32,235 nt of DNA, from IMG/VR virus record IMGVR_UViG_3300037317_000075, positions 1 through 32,235 of that record, one strand, 5' to 3'. Source of the DNA: a virus. Every line of letters begins with the position of its first letter. Within the stretch, counting starts at the first letter, position 1. Below are positions 3,278 through 27,829 of the stretch, one piece after another. The notes beneath the pieces are model-generated. The model did not search any database and had not been told where the DNA came from. It saw nothing but the letters and a program-made list of their open reading frames with translations. Made by a program: the position numbers and the translations under genes.

Positions 3278-3352
<75 letters not shown>

Positions 3353-3585
3353 TCACGGATACCCGGGGGCTGGGAAAGCCATTACGCGCAACGTCTGTTC
3401 AAGGCCCCACTTAGCACGACGCTGACCCCCAGGTATCTTTGCGATAGCGCGTGCGTCTCCGATTTCGCTTGTTGCCGTCGAGGATGCCGGGAAAACATCA
3501 TACACAGAGAGGATGCTTCTTTGTTCCGACTAGGGTCAATTCCCCTTGTTGACGGGCACCCTATGACGTGCCCACGGCTGCGCTA

Positions 3586-3804
3586 TCAATCCCCCCCATT
3601 GTACACTATCCCTTCAACGAGCGCAAGCCCCTGTACCCCTTGCGTGTCGCGGAGAAGGGCCAGGAACTCTTGAATAGTGATGGATTGCCAGAGGTTCTTC
3701 CCGTGCCACCGCACCTTGAAATTCAGTGTGCCTGTGTCGGTGTCAACGTAGCACAGCGGCGCGATGTGTTCTTCCCCCTGAAGCGGAATGCGATTGCCTT
3801 GCAT
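3586..3804 (-). CDS. Small hypothetical protein translationally coupled to the tail fibre gene (possible fibre chaperone)
   Basis: ATG at 3804..3802 overlaps the tail-fibre stop TGA (3806..3804) as ATGA. 72 aa. No family recognised. Confidence 0.5.
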   Translation of the reverse strand: MQGNRIPLQGEEHIAPLCYVDTDTGTLNFKVRWHGKNLWQSITIQEFLALLRDTQGVQGLALVEGIVYNGGD

Positions 3805-5114
3805 CAACTCAACGTCTCCACTACTTGCACTTTGAGTACCTGCAACGTCCCGTCGCTGAGCACCTGCGCGACCTTTGTCCCCGCAGGCGCGTCATAGATT
3901 TCCAACAGCGATGCGGTCTGACCGCTCGTGCCTGTGACTGTGACAGGCACCATCCCGGCAGCGCTACTGCTCACGGAGGCATCCTGCTCAGGCAGCGCGC
4001 CGATATCGCCGGGGGCCAGGGGGTCACTGCCGCCGGTGGCATGCTCAGCAGCATGCGCGGGAAGGTCGCCAGGAACCAGTGCTCCGAACGCGACCGTGGC
4101 GGCCCCGGTTGCGCGTAGCACATGCCCACTGGTGAGTGTTGCAATCGCCGGGTAGAGGTCGAGCTTGGCCTTATCGCCGGAAGGCATAAAGCCATTCGCT
4201 CCGCTGGTCGCCGCCGCGTGCAAGGTGCCCCCTCCCCGGTCGCCGTGTACCGTATCGTCTATCTCTGGTAACTCGGCAGGGGTTAGCGCAGCGCTGGTCA
4301 CGTTGCCGCTCGCGTCACTTTGAAGCACCCCGGCAGCAAGCCCTGATACCTGAAGCGCCACGAGAATAGCCTTTGCGCTGGTCGTGTCCACTGCGAGCAC
4401 ACTCACCCCGGCGTCAGTCTGCACATCAAAGGCAGCAGCGTTGTTCACCGCGGGCTTGACGAGCACCTGGCTCAGCGCCAACCAGAGCGCTGCGCTATTC
4501 GGGGATACGTTGTCATCCTGGATAGCGCGCAACGTCCCGTCAAGGCTCTGTCCATCAGCGAGCTTGAGGTTTTCGACGCCTCCGGTTGCCGGAGCCGTGG
4601 GCGTCCACTGCGCCCCGTCCCATCCAAGAAGCTGCCCTGATGACGGCGCGCTGCTATCCACGTCGCGTCCCTGCAAGCGCACGACCGTGTTGCTCGCCGT
4701 GGTGCCAGTCACGTCACCGCTCAGTGTCGCGCCGAGGGTCTGCAATACCCACTGCCCCGCGCCGCTCGACCAGACATAAATCTGGTTGTTCGCGGGCGCA
4801 TCAGTGGTCACGCTGCGCCCTTGAATATAAGTTGCGTCCCGATACCCGGCAGGCATCCGCGCCTCGGCAATGGTTCCGGCAGTAATCTGGCTGGCATCGA
4901 ACGCGGCGCTGCCCAGGTCGGTCAGGCGGAGAATATCGTTCGCTGCTGCGGGCGCCGATGACACCTGCACCGCAGTCGTGCTGAGCAGGAGTGGAGTAGG
5001 GGTGCCCTCACCATCCTCGACCGCTGTGGGCGTGGCATTGGCCCCATCCGCGTTGGGCACCTGCAAGAGCCGCATGTACGTATCTTTGATGTTACTTCCA
5101 GCCAGTGTTCCCAT
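3804..5114 (-). CDS. Tail fibre / receptor-binding protein
   Basis: 436-aa G/A/T/S-rich ORF with N-terminus MGTLAGSNIKDTYMRLLQV. The HAAEHATGGSDPLAPGDIGA motif is of the kind common in phage fibre proteins. Confidence 0.65.
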   Translation of the reverse strand: MGTLAGSNIKDTYMRLLQVPNADGANATPTAVEDGEGTPTPLLLSTTAVQVSSAPAAANDILRLTDLGSAAFDASQITAGTIAEARMPAGYRDATYIQGRSVTTDAPANNQIYVWSSGAGQWVLQTLGATLSGDVTGTTASNTVVRLQGRDVDSSAPSSGQLLGWDGAQWTPTAPATGGVENLKLADGQSLDGTLRAIQDDNVSPNSAALWLALSQVLVKPAVNNAAAFDVQTDAGVSVLAVDTTSAKAILVALQVSGLAAGVLQSDASGNVTSAALTPAELPEIDDTVHGDRGGGTLHAAATSGANGFMPSGDKAKLDLYPAIATLTSGHVLRATGAATVAFGALVPGDLPAHAAEHATGGSDPLAPGDIGALPEQDASVSSSAAGMVPVTVTGTSGQTASLLEIYDAPAGTKVAQVLSDGTLQVLKVQVVETLS

Positions 5115-5311
5115 TACTCACTCCCTACGCTTCCGCCATAGCTGCCGCCCGTCGCCTGTCCAGTCCAGGCAGGCCCGACAACAAGCCTCCCGGTCGGCTC
5201 AGTGGTTGTCGTACTCGCGCACGGCCCATCACTGCTCTCCCAGGCATTGGGCGCAGTATCCCAGGCGCATTCGGCGGCGTCCCAGGTCACAATGCGCGCT
5301 CCACAGTCCAC
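5114..5311 (-). CDS. Small hypothetical protein between the LamG protein and the tail fibre
   Basis: Its stop overlaps the tail-fibre ATG (TAATG). The likely true start is GTG at 5290, forming GTGA with the upstream stop. The track start at 5311 is also GTG. Confidence 0.4.
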   Translation of the reverse strand: MDCGARIVTWDAAECAWDTAPNAWESSDGPCASTTTTEPTGRLVVGPAWTGQATGGSYGGSVGSE

Positions 5312-6396
5312 TCAGTCATAAAGGTCATTTCAATATGTGCCTCGAACGTCGCAATGAACTGTACCTGGAACGTTCCGGCGTGCTCAACGTCCACGGCGCT
5401 ATACTGCCAGATAAAACGACCTGTCGTCGGGTCGTCGTCGATGGGTAATGTGCCGGTGATGGTGCGCGCCGGTGCGAACTGCGGACGAATCACCCCGCTC
5501 AGCACCGCCCCGGTCAGGTCGAGGGCCGCGCCGCTCTTTGTCCAGGTGATTTGCTGGTAACTCCCGGCTGCCCCCTGCACCGCACGCGCCAGGCCCTCTG
5601 CGGTTTCGCTCACGCTGACTGTCAGCGCGGGGGTGCTGTAGTCGCGCCGGTCGCGCTCGCTCTCAATGTCTGCCTGCTCTAGCGCGCTGTCATACAGCTT
5701 TACATCGACCAGGTATCCGATGAGATACTGGTTTGATGAGAGGTTCACTGACTGCCCCGCCAGCAGCGCGCTGACGGCGCTGCTCGGCCAGGTATACGCC
5801 GAGGGCGCGTTGATGACCTGCGTGGTCGGACTGGTGGCATCGATGGGCCCATAGATGAAAAACGTGGCCGCGCCGCTCCCCCAGGTCACAGCCAGGTGAT
5901 ACCAATCGTTGTCGTTGTCTGTGGTGTCGAAGTCGTGATAGAGCACGTCTCCATTGACCCCATCAGCGGTCGCCGCGAGTTGCAACCGCTTCACCTCCGG
6001 CGTGGCTCCGCCGATGGCGTTGGGGTCAGCATCTTTGTATTCGTAGAGCACCTGGAGAAACGCTGTGCCGTCGGTGATGTACAGCACCACCCCATCCTGG
6101 TCGGTGGTTGTTTCGTGGGCAGGATTCGTGTTGTCTGCCGGGGGCCGAAACCAGACCATCAGGGTTCCGGCGTCCATTGTGCTGCTGAGCCCGCTCGCGT
6201 TGCTGCTGCTGAGCAGGTCTACATACGCATCAGTGCCGTTCAGCAGGACACTCAGCACATCGGGGTCAGTCGAGGGGCTCGCGGCCTGGCCGAGCGTCGG
6301 CGTACCCACATAGACCCCTGGGGCGCTCCCCAGGCTATCCGCAGCGGTCGTGCCGCTCTGTTCGTTCAGTCTGTACCAGTGTAATGGTGTGGGCAT
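5287..6396 (-). CDS. LamG / concanavalin-A-like lectin domain protein (tail or baseplate associated)
   Basis: The 369-aa N-terminal pattern is typical of Laminin-G_3 phage tail proteins: HWYRLNE.SGTTAADS.G...G.Y.G....G......D...S..LNGTDAYVD...(MVWFRP). Confidence 0.6.
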   Translation of the reverse strand: MPTPLHWYRLNEQSGTTAADSLGSAPGVYVGTPTLGQAASPSTDPDVLSVLLNGTDAYVDLLSSSNASGLSSTMDAGTLMVWFRPPADNTNPAHETTTDQDGVVLYITDGTAFLQVLYEYKDADPNAIGGATPEVKRLQLAATADGVNGDVLYHDFDTTDNDNDWYHLAVTWGSGAATFFIYGPIDATSPTTQVINAPSAYTWPSSAVSALLAGQSVNLSSNQYLIGYLVDVKLYDSALEQADIESERDRRDYSTPALTVSVSETAEGLARAVQGAAGSYQQITWTKSGAALDLTGAVLSGVIRPQFAPARTITGTLPIDDDPTTGRFIWQYSAVDVEHAGTFQVQFIATFEAHIEMTFMTEWTVERAL

Positions 6397-7636: not shown

Positions 7637-8030
7637 CGTCCCATTCCTTCATAATCAGGTCAGTGCACAGCTGCACTGCGGTGCGAATAACGCGGGTCTG
7701 ATGCAGCACGATGGTATCGACGCGCTGCTCCCCGAATGCCCTGTCATCCTGGCCTGCTCTGCGCCACTTTTCGGTGCGGGTGCGCAGGATGTTCATCAGG
7801 TCGGGCATGTAGTCATTGAGATACGCCTCGACCCCCTCGCGCAGAAGCGCCTGCTGGTCGGGGGTGGTCAGGACAGATACATCGTCGGCGTAGGCCAGCA
7901 GACTATCGCGGATGACCTGCTCAAATCGCTGATAGAACCCCTGGGGGAGTTGCACTTCGCCCCTGGCTTCATTGAACAGGCTCAGCAGGTTCGCCTTCAT
8001 CGCCTGCTCCACCGGCGTCTGTACGCTCAT
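7626..8030 (-). CDS. Hypothetical protein, possibly the N-terminal half of the Mu F-like head protein
   Basis: The start was chosen at ATG 8030 (MSVQTPVEQ). An alternative is ATG 8000 with GGAG upstream. The longer track ORF overlaps the upstream gene. The segment RVDTIVLHQTRVIRTAV is reminiscent of the R.E.IARTE segment of Mu F domains. Confidence 0.45.
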   Translation of the reverse strand: MSVQTPVEQAMKANLLSLFNEARGEVQLPQGFYQRFEQVIRDSLLAYADDVSVLTTPDQQALLREGVEAYLNDYMPDLMNILRTRTEKWRRAGQDDRAFGEQRVDTIVLHQTRVIRTAVQLCTDLIMKEWDDVA

Positions 8031-8802
8031 CCCGTACCGCTCGTCCGCGTGTTCGGTGCCTTGTCGGGTCGGGGGAAGGTCGGGAGCGCTCTGTGTCGGT
8101 GTCGGCAGCGTTACCATTGGCCTCAAGAACGGACTCCGTTTCGTCATCGGCAGCAGGCTCAGCAGCAGTATCGTCGCTGTGCGTAGGCGCGTCGTCATCG
8201 GTGTCGTGGGCATTGCCGTCTCCTTCGTCTGGTGCCAACGCTGACCGCATCAGCGCAATGGCCTCGCGGAGCACTGCCCGGTCTTCGTCGTCATCCTGGC
8301 TCGTTGACCGCATTGCGTCTTCCAGGTGCGCCAGGCGCGCCGCGAGTTCAGTTTGTCGCTGCTCGTGCTGCATGCGGTCAACCTGCTGTTCGATGCGCAG
8401 CAGCCGAACGGCATCGTCGGGCCCCTGCTGTTCGATGCGCAGCAGCCGAACGGCATCGTCGGGCCCCTGCTGACCAGAGGCGTCGTCGTCGTCGGTAGCA
8501 TCAGGCTCCGGCGCGGGCGGCGCAGCAGCCTCCTCGACCGGCACATCGAATCCGTTGATAATCAGTGCTATCGCTGGGGGCACACCGCTCTGTATCGCGT
8601 AGCGTACCAGGAACAGGTTCCCCAGGCGCGCTCGCTGCTCCTCAGTGAACGTCATCTGCGGCGCGGCAACCTGCTCGCTCAGCGCCTCCATTGCATCCAT
8701 CAGCGTATCAAGGATATCAGATACGTCTTCGGGGGAATAGCGCTCGCCAACATCAGGCAGTGATGGCCCCGTCCCGTTCCCGTTGTTCAGTGGGTCGCTC
8801 AC
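7969..8802 (-). CDS. Acidic, coiled-coil scaffold-like protein
   Basis: Start proposed at GTG 8802 with AAGGAG 6 nt upstream, inside the portal 3' end. An alternative is ATG 8700. The protein is D/E-rich with heptad-like segments and an exact 14-aa duplication. Its position after the portal is typical of scaffold genes. Confidence 0.45.
   Translation of the reverse strand: MSDPLNNGNGTGPSLPDVGERYSPEDVSDILDTLMDAMEALSEQVAAPQMTFTEEQRARLGNLFLVRYAIQSGVPPAIALIINGFDVPVEEAAAPPAPEPDATDDDDASGQQGPDDAVRLLRIEQQGPDDAVRLLRIEQQVDRMQHEQRQTELAARLAHLEDAMRSTSQDDDEDRAVLREAIALMRSALAPDEGDGNAHDTDDDAPTHSDDTAAEPAADDETESVLEANGNAADTDTERSRPSPDPTRHRTRGRAVRDERTDAGGAGDEGEPAEPVQ
8383..8466. repeat. Perfect 42-bp tandem duplication inside the scaffold-like gene
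   Basis: ctgctgttcgatgcgcagcagccgaacggcatcgtcgggccc occurs at 8383-8424 and again at 8425-8466. It encodes QQGPDDAVRLLRIE twice. Confidence 0.95.
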
Positions 8803-10360
8803 GGCGTACTCCTTGCAATCGCTCGGCCAGCGCTCTGGCGCGACGTGCCTGCGCGCTGGTTCCTCTTGCTGCTGGCCCATCCATCGCGGTTCGCACCCCT
8901 GGCACCTGCGCCAGCGCCAGTCCCACATCGAGGGGCAGTCCCGCATTGGTCGCCGCTTGCAGCACGGTCAACGCCGCGGTCACTTCGCGGCGCTGCTCAT
9001 CAGCCGTTTCGTCTTCGGGGGGCAGCCCCAGGCGCTCGCGAGCTTCGTTGCGCTTCACCGTGCCTGTCTCAATGTGATAGCCCAGGATATCAGATTGTGT
9101 GCGCCCCCCGGCCTGCATCTGCTCCTCAACGGCAGCAATGGCCTCCTCCGAAAAGCCGAGCCGCTTCAGCGCATAGACCAGCGGCAACCCCCGGTCAACC
9201 AGGGGCACCAGGCTCGCTGTCTCGGCCACCTGCGCCGCCTCATACGCTTGCATCTCCTGGGGGCGCCATTCCAGGCGCATTCCGAACAGCGCAAAGAACT
9301 CGTTCAGCGGCCTGCGATAATGCGCGTTCACATGAGGCACAATGGTGTGGTGCGTGAAATGCCACTCATCAACACTCGCGTTCGCATAGGTTGAGGCGTT
9401 GCTTTCCAGGAGGCTCTGCGGAATGCCGAAAGCAGCAGCAATGTCTGCACGGTTGATGCTGGTCAGGTCGGGCGCCGCGATGTCTTTGGGGCTCGTGCCG
9501 ACCTCGTGTGGCACAAAGTTATAACGCATCGCCATCGTGTTCCAGGCCCGTCCGACCCCGCCGGTCATGCGCTTCCAGAACCCGACAATGCCCTCAAGCT
9601 CTTGCTCGCTCGGTTGCGGCGTCATCCCGGCCCCGGTATTGCGCGTGTCCAGGAAGAACAGCACCGATTTTAGCGCGCCCTGCATGAAGAAGCGGCGCGT
9701 GTAGCGGCCCAGGTGATACAGCGTCTCCGCCGCGAACTGCGCCGCGTGCGCGGGGCCCACCCCCGGCCCGTCTTCGGCATCCAGGTTCATCGACCAGAAG
9801 TGGATAATGAATGCGTTGTTTGTGCCAGGATAAGAAGCCCCGCTGTTTCGGTTCTGATACGCAGGGTAGCTCTTGTTGGCCCCTCCGAATCGGCGAACGA
9901 AGTGCGTGAGTTCGCCGTTCTTGTTGTACTTCGGGGTGATGCTCTTCGGGAGCAGGCGCCGCGGGTAGTAGTTCCAGCCGTGTCGATTCGGTGTGACCAG
10001 CCAGTAAGCACTGCCCGTCGTTGCCAGGTCGCCTTCGGTGATGGCTAAGAGTTCCTTGAGGTCATCGGCCCACCGCTGATACTCTGCGCCTTCCCGGTCT
10101 AGTTCAGTGGGCCCCCGGCTCAGCGCGAACGGCAGCGACGCCACTGCACCGGCGCGCAAGGCCACAGCTCGGTGATACCACGCCACCCGGCGATATAACT
10201 CTGCCGGTGAAACCGTTGGCCTCGTGTCGCTGGCCGCGTCGCCGTCGCCCTGGCCGAGCAGGTCAGCAGCAGCCGGGTCGTCTATGCCAACCCCAACGCT
10301 CTTGACCCGAACCCCCTGGCCCCGACCATCGTGCTCTTCTACATTGACAACGCGCAGCAT
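8753..10360 (-). CDS. Portal protein
   Basis: 535-aa ORF. The N-terminal region ELYRRVAWYHRAVALRAGAVASLPF and the overall size and layout are typical of the Phage_portal family. ATG has AGGGG upstream. Confidence 0.8.
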   Translation of the reverse strand: MLRVVNVEEHDGRGQGVRVKSVGVGIDDPAAADLLGQGDGDAASDTRPTVSPAELYRRVAWYHRAVALRAGAVASLPFALSRGPTELDREGAEYQRWADDLKELLAITEGDLATTGSAYWLVTPNRHGWNYYPRRLLPKSITPKYNKNGELTHFVRRFGGANKSYPAYQNRNSGASYPGTNNAFIIHFWSMNLDAEDGPGVGPAHAAQFAAETLYHLGRYTRRFFMQGALKSVLFFLDTRNTGAGMTPQPSEQELEGIVGFWKRMTGGVGRAWNTMAMRYNFVPHEVGTSPKDIAAPDLTSINRADIAAAFGIPQSLLESNASTYANASVDEWHFTHHTIVPHVNAHYRRPLNEFFALFGMRLEWRPQEMQAYEAAQVAETASLVPLVDRGLPLVYALKRLGFSEEAIAAVEEQMQAGGRTQSDILGYHIETGTVKRNEARERLGLPPEDETADEQRREVTAALTVLQAATNAGLPLDVGLALAQVPGVRTAMDGPAARGTSAQARRARALAERLQGVRRERPTEQRERDGAITA

Positions 10361-10396: not shown

Positions 10397-10407
10397 ATTA
10401 TAGCACA
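10397..10407 (-). promoter_or_regulatory. Extended -10 promoter (TGTGCTATAAT) upstream of the portal gene
   Basis: The - strand reads TGTGCTATAAT ~30 nt upstream of the portal ATG and just downstream of the two terminators that close the CRISPR transcript. Confidence 0.45.
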
Positions 10408-10424: not shown

Positions 10425-10483
10425 AAAAAGGCGGAGCCCCGAAAGGCCCCGCCCCGAAAAAAAGGGCGCATCAATGGATGCGC
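10425..10483 (-). terminator. Two tandem intrinsic terminators at the distal end of the CRISPR array
   Basis: The - strand shows GCGCAUC-CAUU-GAUGCGC + CC + U7 (10457-10483), then GGCGGGGCC-UUUC..-GGGGCUCCGCC + U5 (10425-10453). U tracts exist only on the - strand. Confidence 0.75.
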
Positions 10484-10532: not shown

Positions 10533-10863
10533 GTTGCACCCGCATTGCCCCACCAGATACCACTGCAACTTGCACGGCCCGGCGGCTATCTGCCCACTCG
10601 TCTGCGTTGCACCCGCATTGCCTCACCAGATACCACTGCAACCGCGACGACGGCGCATGAGTTTCGGCAGTTCGACCTGTTGCACCCGCATTGCCTCACA
10701 GGATGCCGCTGCAACGTCAAGTTGATGGCAACGTATCTCGCAAACAGACGAGGTTGCACCCGCATTGCCTCACCAGATACCGCTGCAACTCCGACTCAAA
10801 TGTGCAAGGGGCGCGGCGGAAACTGTGTTGCACCCGCATTGCCTCACCAGATACCGCTGCAAC
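10533..10863 (-). CRISPR. CRISPR array, five 37-nt repeats and four 36-37-nt spacers (type V-like repeat)
   Basis: Repeats lie at 10533-10569, 10606-10642, 10679-10715, 10753-10789 and 10827-10863. The + strand consensus is GTTGCACCCGCATTGCCTCACCAGATACCGCTGCAAC. R4 and R5 are identical; R1, R2 and R3 carry 2, 1 and 3 substitutions. Spacers on the + strand: ttgcacggcccggcggctatctgcccactcgtctgc; cgcgacgacggcgcatgagtttcggcagttcgacct; gtcaagttgatggcaacgtatctcgcaaacagacgag; tccgactcaaatgtgcaaggggcgcggcggaaactgt. The strand is inferred from the flanking promoter and terminators. Confidence 0.9.
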
Positions 10864-10918
10864 CCTGGGTAATTTTCGCCGCATTCCAATGCCTGAGAAC
10901 CAGGCTGTTTCGCAACTC

Positions 10919-11040
10919 GTTGCAGCATTCGATTGGCAATGTACGGGCGGGGTGTTCTTGTACTTCTTCACCCCGTTGGTTCGCAGTTCGTCGAGCAGAC
11001 ACGCTGCCCTCCCTGCGCTGACAGCCAAAGCACTTGGCCC
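10919..11040 (-). ncRNA. Candidate tracrRNA (scaffold module A plus anti-repeat), co-transcribed with or processed from the array transcript
   Basis: The TSS is inferred ~7 nt after the extended -10 at 11047-11055. The 3' part on the - strand, GCCCGTACATTGCCAATCGAATGCTGCAAC, is complementary to the - strand repeat GTTGCAGC...GGCAATGCGGGT in blocks of 8, 7 and 4-5 bp. Confidence 0.5.
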
Positions 11041-11055
11041 ATATCTATTATACCA
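10944..11055. repeat. Copy A of a 112-bp duplicated structured module (partner at 11291-11402)
   Basis: The copies are collinear without indels at an offset of 347 bp. The 49-nt core gttggttcgcagttcgtcgagcagacacgctgccctccctgcgctgaca is identical (10975-11023 vs 11322-11370). Overall identity is roughly 85 percent by eye. Confidence 0.95.
11047..11055 (-). promoter_or_regulatory. Extended -10 promoter (TGGTATAAT) for module A and the CRISPR array
   Basis: The - strand reads TGGTATAAT. The homologous position in copy B also reads as an extended -10. Confidence 0.5.
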
Positions 11056-11157
11056 GCTTTTCGCTGTTGCCTTCGGCTGAGATTGATGTCACTTGCACCC
11101 GGTCAATGCATAGCGATGCTGCGCCCGGATGTCGCTGCGCCCGTTGAGCGCCATTCT

Positions 11158-11279
11158 GTTGCCCCGACCAGCGAAGTCACTTTGCTTGCGCCCAATTGCT
11201 CACGAGATGTTGCCCCGACCAGCGAAGACTCATAGAAGTTGCCCCGCAGTGCAATCACTTCGTAGCCTCGTTGCTCACG
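11158..11279. repeat. Cluster of degenerate short direct repeats between the two scaffold modules
   Basis: gttgccccgaccagcgaag occurs at 11158-11176 and 11209-11227, and gttgccccg again at 11238-11246. The longer units 11158-11204 and 11238-11279 share gttgccccg...tcactt...ttgctcacg. On the - strand all end in GGGGCAAC, like the CRISPR repeat end GGGTGCAAC. Confidence 0.8.
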
Positions 11280-11284
11280 CTCTG

Positions 11285-11387
11285 AAAAAACGGGCAGGGT
11301 GTTCTGACACTTTTTCACCCTGTTGGTTCGCAGTTCGTCGAGCAGACACGCTGCCCTCCCTGCGCTGACACCCAGCGCACCTGGGCC
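11285..11387 (-). ncRNA. Candidate ~100-nt omega-RNA-like / tracr-like RNA (scaffold module B) directly 3' of the nuclease gene
   Basis: The extended -10 TGATACAAT (11394-11402) overlaps the nuclease stop codon. The RNA ends with the hairpin CAGGGUG-N14-CACCCUG followed by GCCCG and U6 (A-run 11285-11290 on the + strand). Confidence 0.45.
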
Positions 11388-11402
11388 AGAACCATTGTAT
11401 CA
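11291..11402. repeat. Copy B of the 112-bp duplicated structured module
   Basis: See copy A. The hairpin stem is AGGGTG/CACCCT here and GGGGTG/CACCCC in copy A (a compensatory G:C to A:T change), while the loops differ. Confidence 0.95.
11394..11402 (-). promoter_or_regulatory. Extended -10 promoter (TGATACAAT) for module B
   Basis: The - strand reads TGATACAAT. Its TGA is the stop codon of the nuclease gene. Confidence 0.4.
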
Positions 11403-12833
11403 CGACTTCGCACGCGGCTTATAGTTACTTCGTGCTTTGCGCTTCTTCCGCTCTTTCGGCTCGCGCCTGGCAATCTGCCGAGCCGCGTTGATGTCTACCT
11501 GGTTCGTTTCCCCGCACCCCTTGCATATCCAGGTGCGACTTGACCAGTTCATCTCCTGCCGGTGCCCGCAATGGAAGCAATCGGTGGTCGTATGTGCCGC
11601 GTCTACGGTCACGACCTCGCGGCCTGCTGCCCCGGCCTTTTGCCGGGTGAGTTCGCGCAGAGCCCCTGGTGAGGCCGATGCCATACTCCGATTGATATGC
11701 TGCTCGTGCTCGCGTGTCATATCGGCGGATTCACGCTCTTCGGCGCTCTTCTTGTGCCGCAACGCTGACCAGTCGGTGTCCTCGAACTTGATGGTATCTG
11801 CCGTGTCGCGCAACCTGTTCACCACATAGTCCTGGTTGTGCTTGCGCTGCCGCGCAACGCGCTGGTGCAGCCTTGCAATGCGCTGCTGGCGCCGCTGTGT
11901 GCGGTTGCTGGTCGGGTCGGCGGCTTTCGCGCCGTGTTCTTTGCCTTGCCGTTTGGCAGCGCCCTGCCGCCGCTTCAAGCGCTTCGGGTCAATCAAACGT
12001 TGATAGTGAGCCAGCTTCGCCGCACTCTGCTTCAGGCCATCGGGGACACAGTAGATACGCCCATCACTCACCGCCGCAACCTGCTGACCAGTGCCCACAT
12101 AGGCCCCGTTCAAGTCCACACCAATTGTATGTCCTGTCTCTGGCAACGGCTCCGGCGCGGCCTCGCGGCATGTGACATTCAGATACCAGCCATCTGCTTT
12201 CTTGACAATGCTGGTTGTGCGCATCTCTGCCTCGGCTGAGAAGGCCCGGTGATACCGGAAGCGCAGAGAGCCAAGCGTCCTCTTCGCGCCGTGCATCGTG
12301 AGTGCCGCGTATTTACCATCGACAACAAAGTCGCTCGGCTTCTTCGGGAAGTCGATGCCCACGTCGCTGGCCCGGTCTGCCCAGCGCGCCCTGGCGTCTT
12401 TGCGGGGTTTCTTGCCGGGGTTCGCCGCGTTCCATGCACGTCGGCGACGCGTCTCTATCTGTGCGTCGCCCCAGGCTTTCTCGACGCGCTCAATGAGCGC
12501 CGTCGCCGTGTCATACGGGAGACGCTTCCAGTGCATATACCGCTCATCATTGCGCCGCGCTGTGTACTCGGCGTTCTGTGCATACGCAGTCGGCTCATAG
12601 GTGCAATCAATGGGGGCTCGGTCGGGGCGCCATGTCGGGTCAGGGAATTGCAACCCGGCTGCATTCAACGGCAACTCTGCCCGCTCGAATGCTTCGCGGG
12701 TGCGCTGCGCGAACCGGCGCTGTTTAATGCACCAGCGCTGCAAATCGAGCAGCGTCTCCTGCCACTCGGCCAGCAGCGCTTCCTGCGCTGCGGTCGGATA
12801 CGCACGGTATTGATAGGTCTTCATCGTTGGCAT
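11400..12833 (-). CDS. TnpB / Cas12f-like RNA-guided RuvC nuclease (477 aa), candidate effector of the adjacent array
   Basis: The N-terminus KTYQYRAYPTAAQEALL is TnpB/OrfB-like. RuvC-I is IGVDLNG, RuvC-II is IKFEDTD, the zinc finger is CFHCGH...CKGCGE, and RuvC-III is QVDINAARQIA. A basic C-terminal tail follows. ATG at 12833 overlaps the upstream stop (TGATG). Confidence 0.85.
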   Translation of the reverse strand: MPTMKTYQYRAYPTAAQEALLAEWQETLLDLQRWCIKQRRFAQRTREAFERAELPLNAAGLQFPDPTWRPDRAPIDCTYEPTAYAQNAEYTARRNDERYMHWKRLPYDTATALIERVEKAWGDAQIETRRRRAWNAANPGKKPRKDARARWADRASDVGIDFPKKPSDFVVDGKYAALTMHGAKRTLGSLRFRYHRAFSAEAEMRTTSIVKKADGWYLNVTCREAAPEPLPETGHTIGVDLNGAYVGTGQQVAAVSDGRIYCVPDGLKQSAAKLAHYQRLIDPKRLKRRQGAAKRQGKEHGAKAADPTSNRTQRRQQRIARLHQRVARQRKHNQDYVVNRLRDTADTIKFEDTDWSALRHKKSAEERESADMTREHEQHINRSMASASPGALRELTRQKAGAAGREVVTVDAAHTTTDCFHCGHRQEMNWSSRTWICKGCGETNQVDINAARQIARREPKERKKRKARSNYKPRAKS

Positions 12834-13495
12834 CAAAGATACTCCTGGATTTCAGGGTCTATACCAAATGTCTCCGACGCGATTATTGCATTATCAGGCG
12901 GCGCCCTCTGGATAACCTGCGTGATATCCATATATACGCCGAATATCTCTTCATCCAGGTTCGCCCCCTGCTGCCCCAGCAGCGTGCTGGCCTTATCATA
13001 CAATCGCCGCAACGAATTGCCTACTGCATTCAGGCGATACGCAAGCCAGGAAACCTCGCTGTCATAGTCAAATATCTTCATCTTGAGATGCCGCCTACTT
13101 ACATCCAGATAGCAGACAAGCCACAGGAGTCCGTGCTTTTCGTATGGGCCAAACCACGCATGCTCGCTGAGGTATGCCTTATCAGGCGGCTCGTTGGGAC
13201 GTTCGAGGAGGTCAAAGAGACGCTGCTGAATGCTTCTCAGCGTCGTTTCTGACGTCTCTTCGTTCTCAGCGGGCTCGTAGAGCGTTCGGTATGTGTCTGT
13301 CTCAATCTCCTCCAGCTCCGCCCATTTGTCGAGCTGCGCGGCCAGCCATCGGGCAAGCCGCAGGTCGGTGCATACAAAGAGCTCATGGGTATCGCCCTGC
13401 CAGTCATGTTGAACAACCGCATACCCGTATGGTTCGTGACGTGTGAAATAGCTTTGTGAGGCCATGCTTCTATCCTTGTGGTTCGTGTGAGCCAT
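12833..13495 (-). CDS. Unknown protein, first gene of the nuclease operon
   Basis: 220-aa ORF translationally coupled to the nuclease gene. An alternative start is ATG 13465 with AAGGA upstream. The region 12840-13100 is visibly AT-richer than its surroundings. No motif recognised. Confidence 0.6.
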   Translation of the reverse strand: MAHTNHKDRSMASQSYFTRHEPYGYAVVQHDWQGDTHELFVCTDLRLARWLAAQLDKWAELEEIETDTYRTLYEPAENEETSETTLRSIQQRLFDLLERPNEPPDKAYLSEHAWFGPYEKHGLLWLVCYLDVSRRHLKMKIFDYDSEVSWLAYRLNAVGNSLRRLYDKASTLLGQQGANLDEEIFGVYMDITQVIQRAPPDNAIIASETFGIDPEIQEYL

Positions 13496-13714: not shown

Positions 13715-15037
13715 CTACCCAAAGACGACCCCGGCCCCCCTGGTGCCTGCGTAGGTTTTCACGGCTAACCAGGCCAGAGCGAGGCTCATCACCTGGTCAT
13801 CGTGTTGCCCTTCGGGGTGCCCATAGCGGATAAGTCCCGATGGCAATCGCTCACTCTCGTAGGCCAGGAGTTCATTGATAAGCCCCTCGTCAGGCAGGAT
13901 GGCAAGCTGCTCAAGCTCGAAGGCTTGAATCAGACTATCAATGAGTATCTTCTTGCTTTGCGGCGATGTCCAGAACGGTATCACCGGGTAGCCCTTCCCC
14001 TGCAACTCTTCAATGTTCGGCCAGCCCATCGCGTTGGCCTCGATGACCAGGTGAGTGGCGTGGAATCGCTCATGCGCGCCGATGATGCGCGTGCGCTGCG
14101 TGGCATATTCGAGTTGTCTGAAACGGTCCAGGTACACCAGTTCATTCAGCGTCGTATCGATGACCGTCACGACGGTCCAGTCATCGGTGCGTGCCAGGTC
14201 TACGCCGATGATATACTGGTGGCCTTCAATGGCCCGCTCTTGCCACTCGGCATGGGCAGCCTCGCGCACCCGGTGAAAGACGGCGCCTTCATCTTCGAGA
14301 AACTGCGCGAATATCTCTTGTTGCAGGTCCCGCTCGGTCAGGTCTTCGGACAGGCTGTCTATCTCAGTCGGGTCAATGTGCGGATTCGTGTAGCTGCTCA
14401 TCTGCCAGCTTTGCCACTCGCTGCCCCGATACGGGTTATCATCGGCCCCTTTGCGATAGAGTTGCCAGAAGTAATCCCGGCCCCTGGGCGTCGAAAACCA
14501 CCAGCAGTCGCCAAGCTCATCCATCAACGTCGGACGCATGACCTGCTGCCAGGCCAGGCCCAGCTTCGTGACCTGCGCGGCTTCGTCAAAGACCACGCGC
14601 CGATAGTGCCGACCACGCGGGCGCTCTGGATACTCCATTGACCAGAGTTCGATAATCCCGCCGGTACGCAGCGATAATCGGTGGTTCTGCTCGCTCTTGC
14701 TGGCAATGTGTCCGGCAAGGAGCCCCTTCAGCTCGGTCCAGAACTCATTCATCGCCTTGTTGGTCGGGGCGCAATACGCCGCCCGGCCCCCACCGACATA
14801 CGCCGTTTCGCAGAGCAAACGCTTCGCCAGTTCGGTCTTCCCGAAACGCCTACCGAGCGCGCACACGTTGAAGCGGCGCGCCTCACGCAACACGCGCCGC
14901 TGCCCTTCGTGCAGGTCCAGCAACGGCAGGTCGTCGAGGTGTGCCTGGCGCGCCGTGGCAGGCGTCGCCGGGCGCCGCACTGTAAGAGGCGTCGTCGGGC
15001 GCCGAAGCCGTTGACTAGACTGCTTGACTATCGTCAT
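13715..15037 (-). CDS. terL: Terminase large subunit
   Basis: 440 aa. Walker A is GRRFGKTE and Walker B is RRVVFDEAAQ. The C-terminal nuclease-like half contains IGVDLAR and VIEANAMG. Confidence 0.85.
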   Translation of the reverse strand: MTIVKQSSQRLRRPTTPLTVRRPATPATARQAHLDDLPLLDLHEGQRRVLREARRFNVCALGRRFGKTELAKRLLCETAYVGGGRAAYCAPTNKAMNEFWTELKGLLAGHIASKSEQNHRLSLRTGGIIELWSMEYPERPRGRHYRRVVFDEAAQVTKLGLAWQQVMRPTLMDELGDCWWFSTPRGRDYFWQLYRKGADDNPYRGSEWQSWQMSSYTNPHIDPTEIDSLSEDLTERDLQQEIFAQFLEDEGAVFHRVREAAHAEWQERAIEGHQYIIGVDLARTDDWTVVTVIDTTLNELVYLDRFRQLEYATQRTRIIGAHERFHATHLVIEANAMGWPNIEELQGKGYPVIPFWTSPQSKKILIDSLIQAFELEQLAILPDEGLINELLAYESERLPSGLIRYGHPEGQHDDQVMSLALAWLAVKTYAGTRGAGVVFG

Positions 15038-15515
15038 CGTCGTAATCCAGAAGGGGCAGCAGGCGGTCCAGGTTCAGCGTGTGCGCTTCGAGCTCAGCGG
15101 CGACCTGGAAGGTTCGTAGCACCGTGTTCAGGGTTGCTACATTCAGCGGGAGCGACTTCGATTGCAGCGCTTCTGCGACCTGGGAGAGCATGGCCCGGCC
15201 TACTGCGTGCAACTCTTTGGCAGTCTTATTGTAGCGCTCCTGGTGGGCTTCGATTTCGCGGATATGCGCTTCGGCTGCTGCGCGCTGCCGCTGTCGGGCC
15301 AGGTGCGCGTCGTGGGCTGCGACACGCTGCTGCCAGTGATGCTGCGATGACCAGCGGCTTAACAGCTGTCTACTTTTGCCCAACTTTTGCCCAACTGCGG
15401 CCAGGCTGCGCCCAGGGCCCATCTCGGCATATGCCATGAACGCCTCGTGCGCCCTGGCGCTTTCGTTGGGGAGTCGCTCCAACGGAGTCTCAGGGTTCCA
15501 TGCCAGGTCAGTCAT
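15015..15515 (-). CDS. terS: Terminase small subunit-like HTH protein
   Basis: The HTH segment is GRSLAAVGQKLGKSRQLLSRWSSQHHWQQR, and the gene sits directly upstream of terL. ATG at 15515 overlaps the methylase stop (ATGACTGA). The track start at 15536 is TTG. Confidence 0.6.
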   Translation of the reverse strand: MTDLAWNPETPLERLPNESARAHEAFMAYAEMGPGRSLAAVGQKLGKSRQLLSRWSSQHHWQQRVAAHDAHLARQRQRAAAEAHIREIEAHQERYNKTAKELHAVGRAMLSQVAEALQSKSLPLNVATLNTVLRTFQVAAELEAHTLNLDRLLPLLDYDDDDSQAV

Positions 15516-16767
15516 CGTCTCGCTCGGCCAATTCAACGCACAGGCCCTCCGCCTCAGCGCGCTGCAACGTCACGTCCACATAGCGAGGCTCTATCTCTAT
15601 CCCGGCCAGCACACGGCGCAGGCGGTGCGCGGCGATAAGCGTGGGGCCACTGCCCAGGAAACCATCGAAGACCAATGCCCCCTCGTCGCTGCTCTTTTCG
15701 ATACAGCGCTGAATAAGCTCCACCGGTTTGGGGGTCAAATGCTCGGTTGCTGGGGGGCGCCCCGCTTGCCAGAGGTCCCGGTCGCGCTTGCCGCGCAGGG
15801 CGTGCCCTGGCCGAGACGCAAAGATACACACCTCCCACGACGGCGCATAGGTCGCCGTCGGGTCGCCTTTGCTGTACTCGATTTTGTCCCATACAATGAC
15901 GTTTCTGACCTTCTCCGGCAGCGCTTCTATCCACTTATGCATCACATCCCAGCGTGACCAGATGTACCACGCTTCTGCCGGAGGAAACGCTGCGAGCAGG
16001 CGGTGTGGCTGGGGCATGGCATCGTTTGCCAGGTCAGCGTGGCGGGGGCGCTCAATGTGCCGGTTGTAATTGATGCCATACGGGGGGTCGGTCACGACCA
16101 GCGCAACCGGCGCACCCTGCACCACGCGGGCAACCGCAACCGGGTCGGTACTGTCAGCGCAAAGGATGCGGTGTGTCCCATCGATAAGCCACAGGTCGCC
16201 TCGGCGCACCCGGCACGGCGCATCCTCGTCGGGGGCGAACCCATCACCCCCAGCCCCCGGCGCGGACTCTTCGTCGGCCAGCCCCAGCAGCAGGTCAAGG
16301 TCATCGCCAGACACTGACACCGGGAGTTCTTTGTGTTCGGCCAGGCCAGTCAACACATCAAGATACGCCGATTCATCCCATAGATTGGCGATGTCAACCG
16401 CAGTATAGGTGCCCCCGGCCAAGACCAGATTGTTGTGGTCAATGGCATACGCCTCTGCCGTCTCCTGACTCAAGGCATCCACGCCGAACAGCACCGGCAC
16501 CTGCCACTCTCCCTCAGCAATGCCCAGGCCCCTGGGCAGGTCGTGCCCCTGGGTCTGCATCCAGGCCAACGCCTCGGCGCGCCCATTGCCCTCGACCAGC
16601 CCTCCCTGGCCCGCATTCAATGCGGGCTCGTACTTGAGCGGGTCTTTGAACCCATACAACGCAATCGAGCGCGCAATGGCCCCCAGGTCGTGTTGCTTCG
16701 GGTTGCGCTCCCATTGCCGAGCCTGGCTGAGCGGAATATATCGCAGGGTCAATGTATCAGTCGTCAT
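15508..16767 (-). CDS. ParB-like nuclease domain fused to an N6A/N4C DNA methyltransferase
   Basis: The N-terminus WERNPKQHD is ParB/Srx-like. The catalytic motif IV is VTDPPYG, followed later by the SAM motif FDGFLGSGPT (beta-class order). Confidence 0.8.
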   Translation of the reverse strand: MTTDTLTLRYIPLSQARQWERNPKQHDLGAIARSIALYGFKDPLKYEPALNAGQGGLVEGNGRAEALAWMQTQGHDLPRGLGIAEGEWQVPVLFGVDALSQETAEAYAIDHNNLVLAGGTYTAVDIANLWDESAYLDVLTGLAEHKELPVSVSGDDLDLLLGLADEESAPGAGGDGFAPDEDAPCRVRRGDLWLIDGTHRILCADSTDPVAVARVVQGAPVALVVTDPPYGINYNRHIERPRHADLANDAMPQPHRLLAAFPPAEAWYIWSRWDVMHKWIEALPEKVRNVIVWDKIEYSKGDPTATYAPSWEVCIFASRPGHALRGKRDRDLWQAGRPPATEHLTPKPVELIQRCIEKSSDEGALVFDGFLGSGPTLIAAHRLRRVLAGIEIEPRYVDVTLQRAEAEGLCVELAERDDD

Positions 16768-16918: not shown

Positions 16919-16927
16919 ATTATAGCA
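16919..16927 (-). promoter_or_regulatory. Extended -10 promoter (TGCTATAAT) upstream of the mini-array and methylase
   Basis: The - strand reads CTATGCTATAAT ~55 nt upstream of the solitary repeat. Confidence 0.45.
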
Positions 16928-16945: not shown

Positions 16946-17167
16946 CTATGCCGAGAGCCCCTCGCGCCGATAATACATCACCAGCGCGCCGAGCAAGATG
17001 GGATAGTCCCCGATGGGAAATGCGGCACCATACTCGACGATGAGCCGAGCCGCGTTGTCAAAGTGCCGCGCTCGCACAGCGAGCGGGAGCCCCCCCAGGT
17101 CGGCCTGGTCAAGCTCCCGATAAATCGCTGCCCACTTGCGCGGATGCGGGCGGGGCCTTACGCCCAT
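16946..17167 (-). CDS. Hypothetical small protein
   Basis: 73-aa ORF whose start overlaps the end of the upstream ORF. No motif recognised. Confidence 0.45.
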   Translation of the reverse strand: MGVRPRPHPRKWAAIYRELDQADLGGLPLAVRARHFDNAARLIVEYGAAFPIGDYPILLGALVMYYRREGLSA

Positions 17168-17640
17168 AACAGATTGCTCTCGTGCATATCCAACACCCCC
17201 TGCCCTGGCATGCTTACGCGGTAGGTCGTGCTCTGATGCATCGTCCCATCCTCGCCTGCAATGTCTACCGTCGTACCGTTGAGCACCATGACCGGCACGC
17301 CAGTCAGTGTCGTTGCAACGCGACCTTCGTAAACCAGATAATCAATGTGGCGCAGCCAAATCGCCGCACACGCGACGCGAGCGCTACTCCGATGATACAC
17401 CTGGTCAATCAGGTCGGCCAGGTCGCTCAGCGTGCGCTGCTGATGCCAGTGCGCTTCCGTGTTCAGCAGAAAGCCGTAGTCTCGGAGAACCTCCATACCT
17501 TCGCTCCACAGCGTGGGCCGGGGGCCTCCAAATGGGGGCATTGGCAGCAGATATGCTTCGAGGATAGCCTGAACGCGCTCCATTGACCTCTCCGAAACGT
17601 ATGTCAGTGTCCCATCCGGCAACATACAAAGGAAAAACAT
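17158..17640 (-). CDS. Hypothetical protein (160 aa)
   Basis: Start set at ATG 17640 (MFFLCMLPDG) with GAAGGGCG upstream. The longer track ORF runs through a tRNA-like element and looks spurious there. Confidence 0.55.
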   Translation of the reverse strand: MFFLCMLPDGTLTYVSERSMERVQAILEAYLLPMPPFGGPRPTLWSEGMEVLRDYGFLLNTEAHWHQQRTLSDLADLIDQVYHRSSARVACAAIWLRHIDYLVYEGRVATTLTGVPVMVLNGTTVDIAGEDGTMHQSTTYRVSMPGQGVLDMHESNLLWA

Positions 17641-17695
17641 AGTATCGCCCTTCTTCGTTCGGGCCTGGCCCCATCGGTCAGACCCCTTGCTGGTG

Positions 17696-17799
17696 TGGTG
17701 GAGGTGGGCAGAGTTGAACTGCCGTGCTACACGTCGGTGCCCTCGCGGGCCTGGTTGCTTCGCTGTCGAACAGTGCGCCTTCCAGCTACACACAACCCC
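17696..17799 (-). other. tRNA-like element (T arm, acceptor 3' strand, CCA) in the 5' leader of the first early cassette
   Basis: The - strand 3' part reads GGCAG-TTCAACT-CTGCC-CACCTCC-A-CCA. A possible 5' partner is GGGGTTG at 17799..17793, with a D-arm-like GTGT-AGCTGGAAGGC-GCAC. I could not fold an anticodon arm, and the length (~104 nt) is too long for a canonical tRNA. Confidence 0.3.
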
Positions 17800-17864
17800 G
17801 TCGCCTAGTCGAAACCAAATCACCCCCGTCATTCCCCGTCAAAACCATCTCTCTCACACTTCTT

Positions 17865-26366: not shown

Positions 26367-27829
26367 CATTCCAGGATGGCGCGCATGTGCCGCACGATAG
26401 CCTTGTGCCCATCCTGGTCACTCATCCACGTTCCACCAAGACCTCGCACCGTAGGCGCGCAGCCCCAATACTGCTCAGGCAATGGTCTGCCCAGCCAGCG
26501 CTGCGCTTCTTCGTGTTCCGTGCCTCCACCGTACAGGTGCAGCCTCCACGCATGCGCCGGTATCGATGTGCGCCCAGGTACTTCTGGCCGAGCCCACGCA
26601 TCAAACCCGAGCCCTTTCCGCCACCATTGCCCATCAAAGAACCAGCCATCTTCGTCAGGACGTTCGGCCTGTGGCGCTGCGCCGACCACGCCGATGCCTG
26701 CGGGATTGCGGAGGTTCTGCTCCGCATTGTCGGTGCGCTGGCTCCAAAATGAACTGAGGCAATCGGTTTCGTGCGCCATCTGCGCGGCCATCACCAGCGG
26801 GTTCACGCCGGTGCGCCGCGCCCAGGCAAACAGAGCAGGCACAATACCATACGCGATGTCATGTTCAGTGTATTCGCCGGTGGTGCGCTGAAGGAGATAT
26901 CTCGTCACCTGCTCCGGCGTGACGTTGTTCTCTCCCAGGATGGGCGTGTCCTCGCTGATGTGCTGCCCCGCCAGCGGCGATGCGTGCGCCTCCGGCACAA
27001 ATCCGCTGCCGTCAGCGAGCCAGAGCCAGGGCCCATTGCCTTTATCGACGATGGCGCCGACGACAACCTCGTCGCCAGGGTGCTTCTCAACGACCTGTAC
27101 CCCTCGTGATTGAGGAGCCTGCCGAACAGCCGTGGGCGCGTGGATAAGGTAGCGCACCGGCGGGTCGAGCAGGACTTCCCGGTGCCCGCCTTCAGGGGGG
27201 TCGGCCTCCGCTATCTTACGTGCCGCATACTCCTTGATGACGCCGATGTAGTAGGCATCCTCGATAGCATCGCCAGGGCAGCTCGGCTTGTTATAATCCC
27301 GATGGCTCGATATGCCCCCAGGCCCAACCGTATGGGCCAGCTCGAATGTGCCGAGCTTGCAGTACAATGCCCACACCGCTCCTGCGACGTTCGTTTCGAC
27401 TGCCAGGGGCCAGCGCTTTTCGCTGTAGTTCCCGACAACCTCAATACCGATGGAGTAATCTTTGCCGCCTTCAGGGATGTTGCCGTTGCCGCCTGCCGCG
27501 TGGATGCCCTGGTTATACATCGGCGTCATCAGCCAGACCCATCGCTCATCAATGAACAAATGCGGCCCCTTGCGCCAGCCCAGGCGCTCATAGAACGTCC
27601 GAATATTGAGCAGTTGTTCCAGTCGCTTGTGGTAGATGGCGTCTTCGCTGAGCCCGTCTTCGTTCGCGTCCCATAACCAGCCTCCATTGTTCGCATAGAC
27701 CGTTCCCGGCACGGCTGTGTGGTGCAGTATCACAAACGTGGGTGGCAGCGAACCGAACTGGTAGCTCTCGACGTAACGCTCGAACTCATAGAGCCGCAGC
27801 CCTCGCCCGATGCAAAGGAAGTCACTCAT
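26363..27829 (-). CDS. Endolysin: N-terminal N-acetylmuramoyl-L-alanine amidase (Amidase_2/PGRP type) plus C-terminal glucosaminidase-like domain
   Basis: The amidase signatures are ILHHTA...GPHLFID...SIGIEVVGNY...SHRDYNKPSCPG. The C-terminal NPLVMAAQMAHETD resembles the glucosaminidase/LytD motif. ATG at 27829 overlaps the holin-like stop. Confidence 0.8.
   Translation of the reverse strand: MSDFLCIGRGLRLYEFERYVESYQFGSLPPTFVILHHTAVPGTVYANNGGWLWDANEDGLSEDAIYHKRLEQLLNIRTFYERLGWRKGPHLFIDERWVWLMTPMYNQGIHAAGGNGNIPEGGKDYSIGIEVVGNYSEKRWPLAVETNVAGAVWALYCKLGTFELAHTVGPGGISSHRDYNKPSCPGDAIEDAYYIGVIKEYAARKIAEADPPEGGHREVLLDPPVRYLIHAPTAVRQAPQSRGVQVVEKHPGDEVVVGAIVDKGNGPWLWLADGSGFVPEAHASPLAGQHISEDTPILGENNVTPEQVTRYLLQRTTGEYTEHDIAYGIVPALFAWARRTGVNPLVMAAQMAHETDCLSSFWSQRTDNAEQNLRNPAGIGVVGAAPQAERPDEDGWFFDGQWWRKGLGFDAWARPEVPGRTSIPAHAWRLHLYGGGTEHEEAQRWLGRPLPEQYWGCAPTVRGLGGTWMSDQDGHKAIVRHMRAILEC

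Follow-up and report, generated by a model that had tools for sequence, protein, structure and literature searches.

The locus considered here lies on a phage contig (IMG/VR virus record IMGVR_UViG_3300037317_000075, positions 1 to 32,235), and the whole 32,235-nucleotide (nt) stretch analyzed is referred to as the window; the phage is unclassified, and the phage collections searched contained no detectable relatives of it. On the minus strand, running from the large terminase gene (13715-15037) to the portal protein gene (8753-10360), the order is an unannotated open reading frame (ORF) of 220 amino acids (12833-13495), the gene for a TnpB-like RNA-guided nuclease (11400-12836; 474-478 amino acids by choice of start codon), a pair of scaffold RNA modules, an array of clustered regularly interspaced short palindromic repeats (CRISPR), two terminator-like hairpins, and TGCTATAAT, a promoter-like element immediately upstream of the portal gene. 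The scaffold pair and its relation to the nuclease and the array are the main subjects of what follows.

All elements of the scaffold region are read on the minus strand. The gene-adjacent module, copy B, consists of an extended -10 promoter element, TGATACAAT (11394-11402), a scaffold RNA of four helices (11292-11389), and an end of GCCCG followed by six T residues (11285-11295). An inter-copy stretch (11056-11284) separates it from the second module, copy A, which has its own extended -10 element, TGGTATAAT (11047-11055), a scaffold body (10945-11042), and a 30-nt tail, GCCCGTACATTGCCAATCGAATGCTGCAAC (10919-10948). A leader without detected terminator-like sites (10864-10918) connects this tail to the first repeat of the array (10533-10863), which contains five 37-nt repeats (GTTGCAGCGGTATCTGGTGAGGCAATGCGGGTGCAAC) and four spacers of 36-37 nt; two intrinsic terminator-like sites (10428-10483) lie directly 3' of the array.

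The nuclease passes the NCBIfam guided_TnpB model (160.8 bits; cutoff 100) and matches the Pfam domain Cas12f1-like_TNB (3.5e-15); its match to the type V-U2 (C2c8) model NF038192 is partial, at 101.1 bits against a cutoff of 350. Across 25 homologues the RuvC residues D237, E348, and D444 are invariant or near-invariant, so that the triad is intact, and the four zinc-finger cysteines are also near-invariant, at 90% or more. The AlphaFold2 model has a predicted local distance difference test (pLDDT) score of 84.8, and Foldseek ranks the TnpB structures 8iaz and 8h1j at the top, followed by Cas12p, Cas12f, and LaTranC. The top sequence match in the PDB is RdCas12n (9J09; E = 4.5e-12), a local match that covers residues 171-460. 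On these results, the nuclease looks active. Few proteins belong to its clade: among 1.84 billion representative proteins, about a dozen clusters at 50% identity score above 170 bits, and the general TnpB background begins beneath that score. Scans of IMG/VR, JGI metagenomes, and GTDB genomes with protein patterns returned no relatives.

Copies A (10944-11055) and B (11291-11402) align without gaps and are identical at 96 of 112 positions (85.7%), with a single identical run of 49 nt (11322-11370 in B, 10975-11023 in A); the initial annotation of the window, which had described a duplicate without indels at an offset of 347, with a 49-nt core and about 85% identity, is thus borne out. A repeat search of the window returned one two-copy family, of 122 nt (10943-11064 and 11290-11411; spacing 347, 84% identity). 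The same two copies, again 347 nt apart, are present in three contigs from other JGI samples (L011-L013), and three Logan contigs (L014-L016) all end 30 nt (k-1) into the 49-nt shared core, the pattern that a repeat leaves in a de Bruijn graph of k=31. Recurrence in other assemblies rules out an assembly artefact as the source of the duplication. The four population copies of the tracr region of about 560 nt differ by one single-nucleotide polymorphism, at about position 3460 of L012; it lies in helix 2 of copy A and turns a C-G pair into U·G, so that pairing is maintained.

Differences between the two copies preserve the structure. At helix 4 (columns 76/109) a G-C pair in copy A is replaced by A-U in copy B, the compensatory change to which the initial annotation had drawn attention; stem 1 contains two further compensatory pairs that had been missed there (GCCAA/TTGGC in A, CCCAG/CTGGG in B). 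In a MAFFT alignment of six sequences the four-helix model pairs 99.1% of cells and seven pairs are changed on both sides, compared with 0-1 in controls in which the pairing partners were slid by 1-3 columns. In an alignment of nine sequences that includes canonical TnpB loci, and that was fitted to the model and hence leans towards its structure, 98.9% of cells are paired and 16 of 22 pairs are changed on both sides; the slid controls give at most 5.

In all relatives for which a contig was obtained, with the possible exception of L010, a related sequence is located at the 3' end of the nuclease gene or overlaps that end, and one four-helix structure, including the helix 4 hairpin, fits the relatives. 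Their nucleases are 75-81% (L001, L002, and L004), 48% (L003), 44% (L009), 38% (L007), 36% (L008), and 33% (L010) identical to that of the window. A covariance model built from the sequences of close relatives matches the window at two sites only, copy A (111.6 bits) and copy B (112.6 bits), and also matches the ORF 3' ends in L008, L009, and L005, plus the locus L006. In L010 the model has no match at E values up to 0.01; a diverged likeness to the scaffold core is visible there by eye, inside the 3' end of the ORF. L005 is a canonical TnpB gene of 419 amino acids with the scaffold at its 3' end, and was recovered, like L006, by a metagenome search for the core motif GCGCRGGGAGGGC...GAACYGCGAA; the metagenomes gave only two loci, both of canonical TnpB type, and this pattern had no matches in GTDB or IMG/VR. 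The L005 RNA resembles the TnpB-associated Rfam family HgcC (E = 4e-5, below the gathering score). In L008 and L009 the scaffold lies within the nuclease ORF. In L009 (2593-2852; protein P0012, 561 amino acids) the ORF reads through the scaffold and adds a C-terminal tail of about 90 amino acids. The omega-RNA-like scaffold of L006 (243-345) has a core nearly identical to that of L005, but a complete tnpB ORF is missing upstream of it, and the locus could be a solo remnant.

The comparisons show the module to be a conserved, structured RNA that is linked to the nuclease. By position at the gene 3' end and by homology at L005, L006, L008, and L009 it also has the properties of an omega-RNA scaffold, and on these comparisons it represents an undescribed branch of the omega-RNA/tracrRNA scaffold family (tracrRNA, trans-activating CRISPR RNA). 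A module with no relation to the nuclease, whether a regulatory RNA or cis-element of the phage or a repeat produced by chance or by assembly, would agree with the outcome against Rfam 15, in which the window modules have no match at gathering or relaxed thresholds, and with single-sequence folding that is not distinctive. This explanation is nevertheless extremely improbable: the module is found at the 3' ends of TnpB-family genes in eleven further contigs of varied context, its covariation is strong, and the arrangement is seen again in independent assemblies. That the module co-occurs with nuclease genes refutes the explanation.

The two copies differ most in what follows helix 4. In copy A the tail GCCCGTACATTGCCAATCGAATGCTGCAAC comes directly after this helix, and when co-folded with the minus-strand repeat RNA it forms a duplex of 27 base pairs and -37.2 kcal/mol that is colinear with repeat positions 1-33 and leaves unpaired the last four repeat bases (CAAC) before the spacer. 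The duplex is strand-specific, the corresponding energy for the plus-strand repeat being -14.5 kcal/mol. An anti-repeat in copy A, complementary to the minus-strand repeat, had been proposed from blocks of complementarity, and the duplex bears it out. The orientation of the array is fixed by the minus-strand terminators, by the degenerate repeats at its leader-distal end, and by the strand of the gene and the scaffold. A terminator scan found no terminator-like site between copy A and the array, so co-transcription of copy A with the precursor of the CRISPR RNA (crRNA) is possible. The order of scaffold and then anti-repeat, running on towards the array, supports copy A as a tracrRNA candidate, in line with the layout suggested initially.

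The array is live and its spacers turn over. The contig L011 (2333-2815) has a tracr region identical to that of the window, but seven repeats and a different spacer set. The two sets, of four spacers in the window and six in L011, are unrelated; L011 spacer 1 overlaps the protospacer of window spacer 1 with a 19-nt offset and two mismatches, and within the L011 set spacers 2 and 6 nearly duplicate each other. The ORFs scanned included no cas1, cas2, or cas4.

The extended -10 elements of copies A and B share the same register, as had been noted at the outset, and both conform to the pattern TGNTAYAAT, which occurs five times in the window against 0.57 expected, an enrichment of about ninefold. 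The remaining sites are at 10397-10405 and 16919-16927 (-) and at 27289-27297 (+); of these three, one precedes the start of the portal gene and one that of the DNA methyltransferase ORF (15508-16767, minus strand), which leads the minus-strand gene run through the terminase. TGNTAYAAT is probably the promoter type of this phage. The element of copy B is kept in register in L001, L002, L004, and L014-L016.

Copy B begins at the stop codon of the nuclease gene, the TGA falling inside its -10 element, and ends in GCCCG plus six U residues. Both boundaries, and the placement of this copy where the omega-RNAs or tracrRNAs of relatives lie, agree with the initial annotation. Copy B retains its promoter, the full set of four helices, and the guide-proximal GCCCG; TTTTTTCAGAGCGTGA stands in place of the central 20 nt of the anti-repeat, and homology to copy A resumes at GCAACGAG. 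Pairing of its tail with the repeat reaches -28 kcal/mol, no better than background, so that copy B does not have a recognizable anti-repeat. Nor does a 3' guide read from flanking DNA follow it, since the sequence beyond GCCCG and the U tract is homologous to the sequence after the anti-repeat. A natural fused single guide, of the order scaffold, GCAAC, and spacer, was considered for copy B and rejected, as the sequence beginning GCAACGAG has homologues after the anti-repeat of copy A and in L003 and is not a spacer.

The inter-copy stretch is identical in L011-L013 and contains, behind the decayed anti-repeat, three repeat-like relics (11238-11258, 11186-11208, and 11093-11122), all in direct orientation. 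Their Smith-Waterman scores against the repeat fall in the top 0.1-0.5% of the contig, and they are three of the roughly ten best matches anywhere in it. With moderate confidence, the relics may be read as a decayed array behind copy B. The same stretch includes a perfect 20-nt direct repeat, CTTCGCTGGTCGGGGCAACA (minus strand), at 11157-11176 and 11208-11227, with a third partial copy at 11234-11246; it is kept in L011-L013, and its perfection is not obviously explained by a decayed array.

Twelve differences between the RNA bodies of the two copies were polarized with outgroups. Two compensatory pairs in helix 1 are derived in the A lineage and one in helix 4, from G-C to A-U, is derived in the B lineage; the remaining differences fall within loops or at unpaired sites, and every stem stays intact. 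Compensatory changes on both lineages without a broken stem indicate that both copies have been under structural constraint since their separation. The differences are also unevenly spread: copies A and B differ at 0 of 49 core positions and at 12 of 50 flanking positions, and orthologues differ at 9-12 of 49 positions in the same core (Fisher p = 2e-4). An identical core could be the product of gene conversion, or could reflect two RNAs that have to fit one nuclease.

These observations bear on what copy B is now. It may be a non-functional leftover, intact through recency or gene conversion from copy A and serving at most as the 3' end or terminator of the nuclease operon. The loss of its central anti-repeat, the decay of the neighboring repeats, and the sharp edges of the 49-nt identical block, which fit a conversion tract, speak for such a fate, but the compensatory G-C to A-U change on the B lineage, the unbroken stems, the extended -10 retained in register, and the continued pairing of helices 1 and 4 outside the identical block do not; and flanks that are 24% diverged show that the duplication is not recent. 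A mere leftover is accordingly rated somewhat unlikely. A slightly better, still tentative, case can be made for copy B as a working second scaffold, which by analogy would either act as a minimal tracrRNA that relies solely on a GCCCG:CGGGU contact or titrate the nuclease as a decoy. A role of this kind would fit the structural selection on copy B, its own predicted promoter, and a core identical to that of copy A at positions that vary among orthologues; engineered Un1Cas12f1 scaffolds (ge4.0) work with most of the repeat:anti-repeat duplex removed, and scoutRNAs with short complementarity are known. Against it stands the duplex of the copy B tail with the repeat, which is at background level. 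It is conceivable, but doubtful, that the phage has two natural scaffold RNAs, of which A would be a classical tracrRNA and B a selected nuclease-binding RNA, either scout-like or a decoy that would set how much active nuclease is present during infection.

The order of events can be approached through the relatives. L003 (48%) has one gene-adjacent copy that runs into an A-type tail (TTACCAAT...GCAATGATGGTTGCGAAAG), the counterpart of which in the window is CATTGCCAAT...GCAACGAGTTGCGAAAC, and in L010 (33%) three 38-nt repeats (GTTGCAAT...GGTTGCAAGA; 2066-2231) follow the gene directly. An A-type tail in the former and an array in the latter suggest that CRISPR association predates the duplication. 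The L010 nuclease has 559 amino acids, and the first spacer of its array is just 17 nt long. In the window, homology between A and B reaches at least 9 nt, and weakly about 20 nt, into the coding sequence that overlaps B, that is, the last codons of the gene; this weak homology of copy A to the gene's last codons marks copy A as the displaced one, derived from a gene-adjacent unit. Copy B is nearer to the orthologues than copy A (79% against 74% to L001, 84% against 80% to L004).

The initial annotation had read the pair as a snapshot of an omega-RNA scaffold being duplicated and split, with copy B as an ancestral omega-RNA still in place and copy A as a fresh duplicate turned tracrRNA, so that the transition from TnpB to type V would be caught in progress. 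Part of that proposal stands: the RNA is conserved, copy A has the layout of a tracrRNA, and the scaffold is homologous to canonical omega-RNA scaffolds. Copy B also occupies the omega-RNA position and is the closer of the two to the orthologues, and the modelled protein is structurally nearest to TnpB. The part that lacks support is a duplication or split in progress. The sequence after GCAAC in copy B is homologous to the post-anti-repeat sequence of A and is not variable flank, so that no guide is present; copy B is followed by repeat-like relics; and relatives as distant as L003 and L010 already show an A-type tail or an array. Transposon ends are likewise missing: the start of the nuclease gene abuts or overlaps the stop of the upstream ORF (12833-13495), which leaves no space for the left end of a transposon, the ORFs scanned contained no TnpA, and the position of the gene between terminase and portal is not that of an IS200/IS605 or IS607 element. 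A transition caught in the act is thus improbable.

The arrangement is better explained, with a fair degree of probability, by a secondary event in a TranC/Cas12n-like system, in which a cassette of tracrRNA and array was duplicated in tandem. Under this explanation the locus would be a phage-borne, miniature, TnpB-derived type V CRISPR system that works like TranC and Cas12n, and the tracrRNA body would be an RNA of about 100 nt and four helices that is homologous to the omega-RNA scaffolds of TnpB. Copy A (10919-11055, minus strand) would be transcribed from its own extended -10, possibly together with the crRNA precursor. In each 37-nt repeat, its 3' tail would pair with the first two-thirds from the 5' end and with the CGGGU block, leaving GCAAC and the spacer as the guide end; the nuclease and the tracrRNA:crRNA pair would then cut DNA that matches the spacers, presumably that of rival mobile elements. 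Copy B (11285-11402) would hold the ancestral, gene-adjacent position. The cassette of tracrRNA plus array would have been duplicated in tandem in a lineage that was already CRISPR-associated, after which the proximal cassette would have lost its anti-repeat while its array decayed to relics, and the distal cassette (A) would carry the live array. Copy B would still be a maintained structured RNA, most likely one that binds the nuclease.

Several results weigh against the cassette duplication or parts of it. The energy of the copy A duplex ranks 273rd among the 31,748 44-nt windows of the contig, which is only the top 0.9% in GC-rich DNA, so the case for an anti-repeat depends on energy and position together. 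The repeat is partly palindromic, and the tail therefore also resembles the repeat 3' end in direct orientation. Comparison of covariation between anti-repeat and repeat yielded no variation to use, complete sister loci being identical and the contigs of diverged relatives ending before the array; in the distant array-bearing locus L010 no anti-repeat is evident by duplex energy. No spacer target was found in the phage collection, the window, the fetched loci, or IMG/VR. Single-sequence folding z-scores of the modules are no better than those of shuffled sequence. At copy B, GCCCG plus six U residues was not flagged by the terminator scan and is not a canonical terminator, and the identical 49-nt core could be due to gene conversion and not to a function of copy B. 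The relics are not significant in nhmmer with a repeat profile, and global alignment of the sequence downstream of B with that downstream of A gives weak colinearity (z about 2.2).

Among described systems, the closest parallel is TranC, in which an omega-RNA/reRNA is split into tracrRNA and crRNA and of which CauTranC9 is a characterized, phage-encoded member (Jin et al., 2025, as reported in the citing sources PMC13565253 and bioRxiv 10.64898/2026.03.27.714800). Shared with TranC are a TnpB-sized nuclease beside a short CRISPR array, adaptation genes not having been detected here; a guide split into a scaffold-derived tracrRNA and a crRNA, which in the window is a prediction; and a member encoded by a phage. 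Two tandem scaffold genes, one of them without an anti-repeat, set the window apart, and no description of such a pair was found in the sources read. The tracrRNA of Cas12n (type V-N, formerly V-U4) overlaps the nuclease ORF (PMC12216341), a layout at or over the ORF 3' end that L008 and L009 share, and RdCas12n is the best sequence match in the PDB. That match is local only, however, the fold of the window protein is nearer to TnpB, and the scaffold in the window's clade begins at the stop codon, with a promoter of its own. By analogy, the system would work like a TranC or Cas12n-type effector; this is a likeness and not a clade assignment.

The repeat itself recalls Un1Cas12f1 (Cas14a1), which also has a 37-nt repeat that starts with GTTGCAG and ends with TGCAAC right before the guide, and in which the 3' end of the tracrRNA pairs with the 5' end of the repeat; the proteins are distant, however (PDB E of about 1e-5 to 1e-6), and the scaffold sequences are unrelated. 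With TnpB omega-RNA/reRNA (IS200/IS605, IS607; HgcC) the window copies share the core GCGCRGGGAGGGC...GAACYGCGAA, the helices, and the position at the gene 3' end, but they differ in having neither a flank-derived 3' guide nor transposon ends, and no match in Rfam. The scoutRNA of Cas12c and Cas12d, a structured helper RNA with a few nucleotides complementary to the repeat, is a possible analogue of copy B; the two have no sequence or structural relationship, and the comparison is an analogy only. Two phage systems were ruled out as matches: Thermus-phage Cas12r, which has 29-bp repeats and uses crRNA only, and myxophage Cas12m, which is a different effector.

The split of an omega-RNA into tracrRNA and crRNA is already known from the TranC model, as far as the sources cited describe it. 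What appears new against the sources read is a tandem scaffold pair, one member complete and the other without an anti-repeat, that is apparently under selection in both copies and stable across a phage population while the arrays turn over. For a rare clade, the locus provides a compact (about 475 amino acids) CRISPR-associated TnpB-like nuclease with a candidate tracrRNA, a repeat, and an orientation, which suffice for the design of a single-guide RNA. It also suggests that guide-RNA loci keep changing after the split, with a cassette duplicated, one array apparently decayed, and both scaffolds selected. If copy B is functional, it would be a natural test of the anti-repeat length that is needed and of regulation by a scaffold alone, and two working scaffolds would constitute a regulatory layer not described for type V systems. 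Near-identical phages differ in their spacer sets, though adaptation genes were not found among the ORFs scanned.

The remainder of the window has the character of a phage genome. Besides the genes already named, the minus strand encodes a fusion of head protease and major capsid protein (743-3124) and an amidase. The GenBank phage collection gave zero DNA matches to the locus and zero protein matches to the window's portal, and neither this collection nor IMG/VR yielded a match to the contig. A transfer RNA gene, tRNA-Met (CAT), is found at 3278-3352 (-) amid phage structural genes, and the ORF at 7969-8946 contains a perfect 42-bp tandem repeat of 2.2 copies (8382-8472). A match to the Rfam transfer-messenger RNA (tmRNA) family RF00023 at 17696-17827 (-) scores 54.2 bits, against a gathering threshold of 47, and is squeezed into 132 nt inside the ORF at 17158-17832, where ARAGORN calls no tmRNA; the site may be a tmRNA-derived fragment, for example an attachment site. 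In the related phage contig L001, a protein of 719 amino acids with Radical_SAM and TAGT domains (3536-5695) is encoded upstream of the terminase gene and may be the product of a DNA-modification gene.

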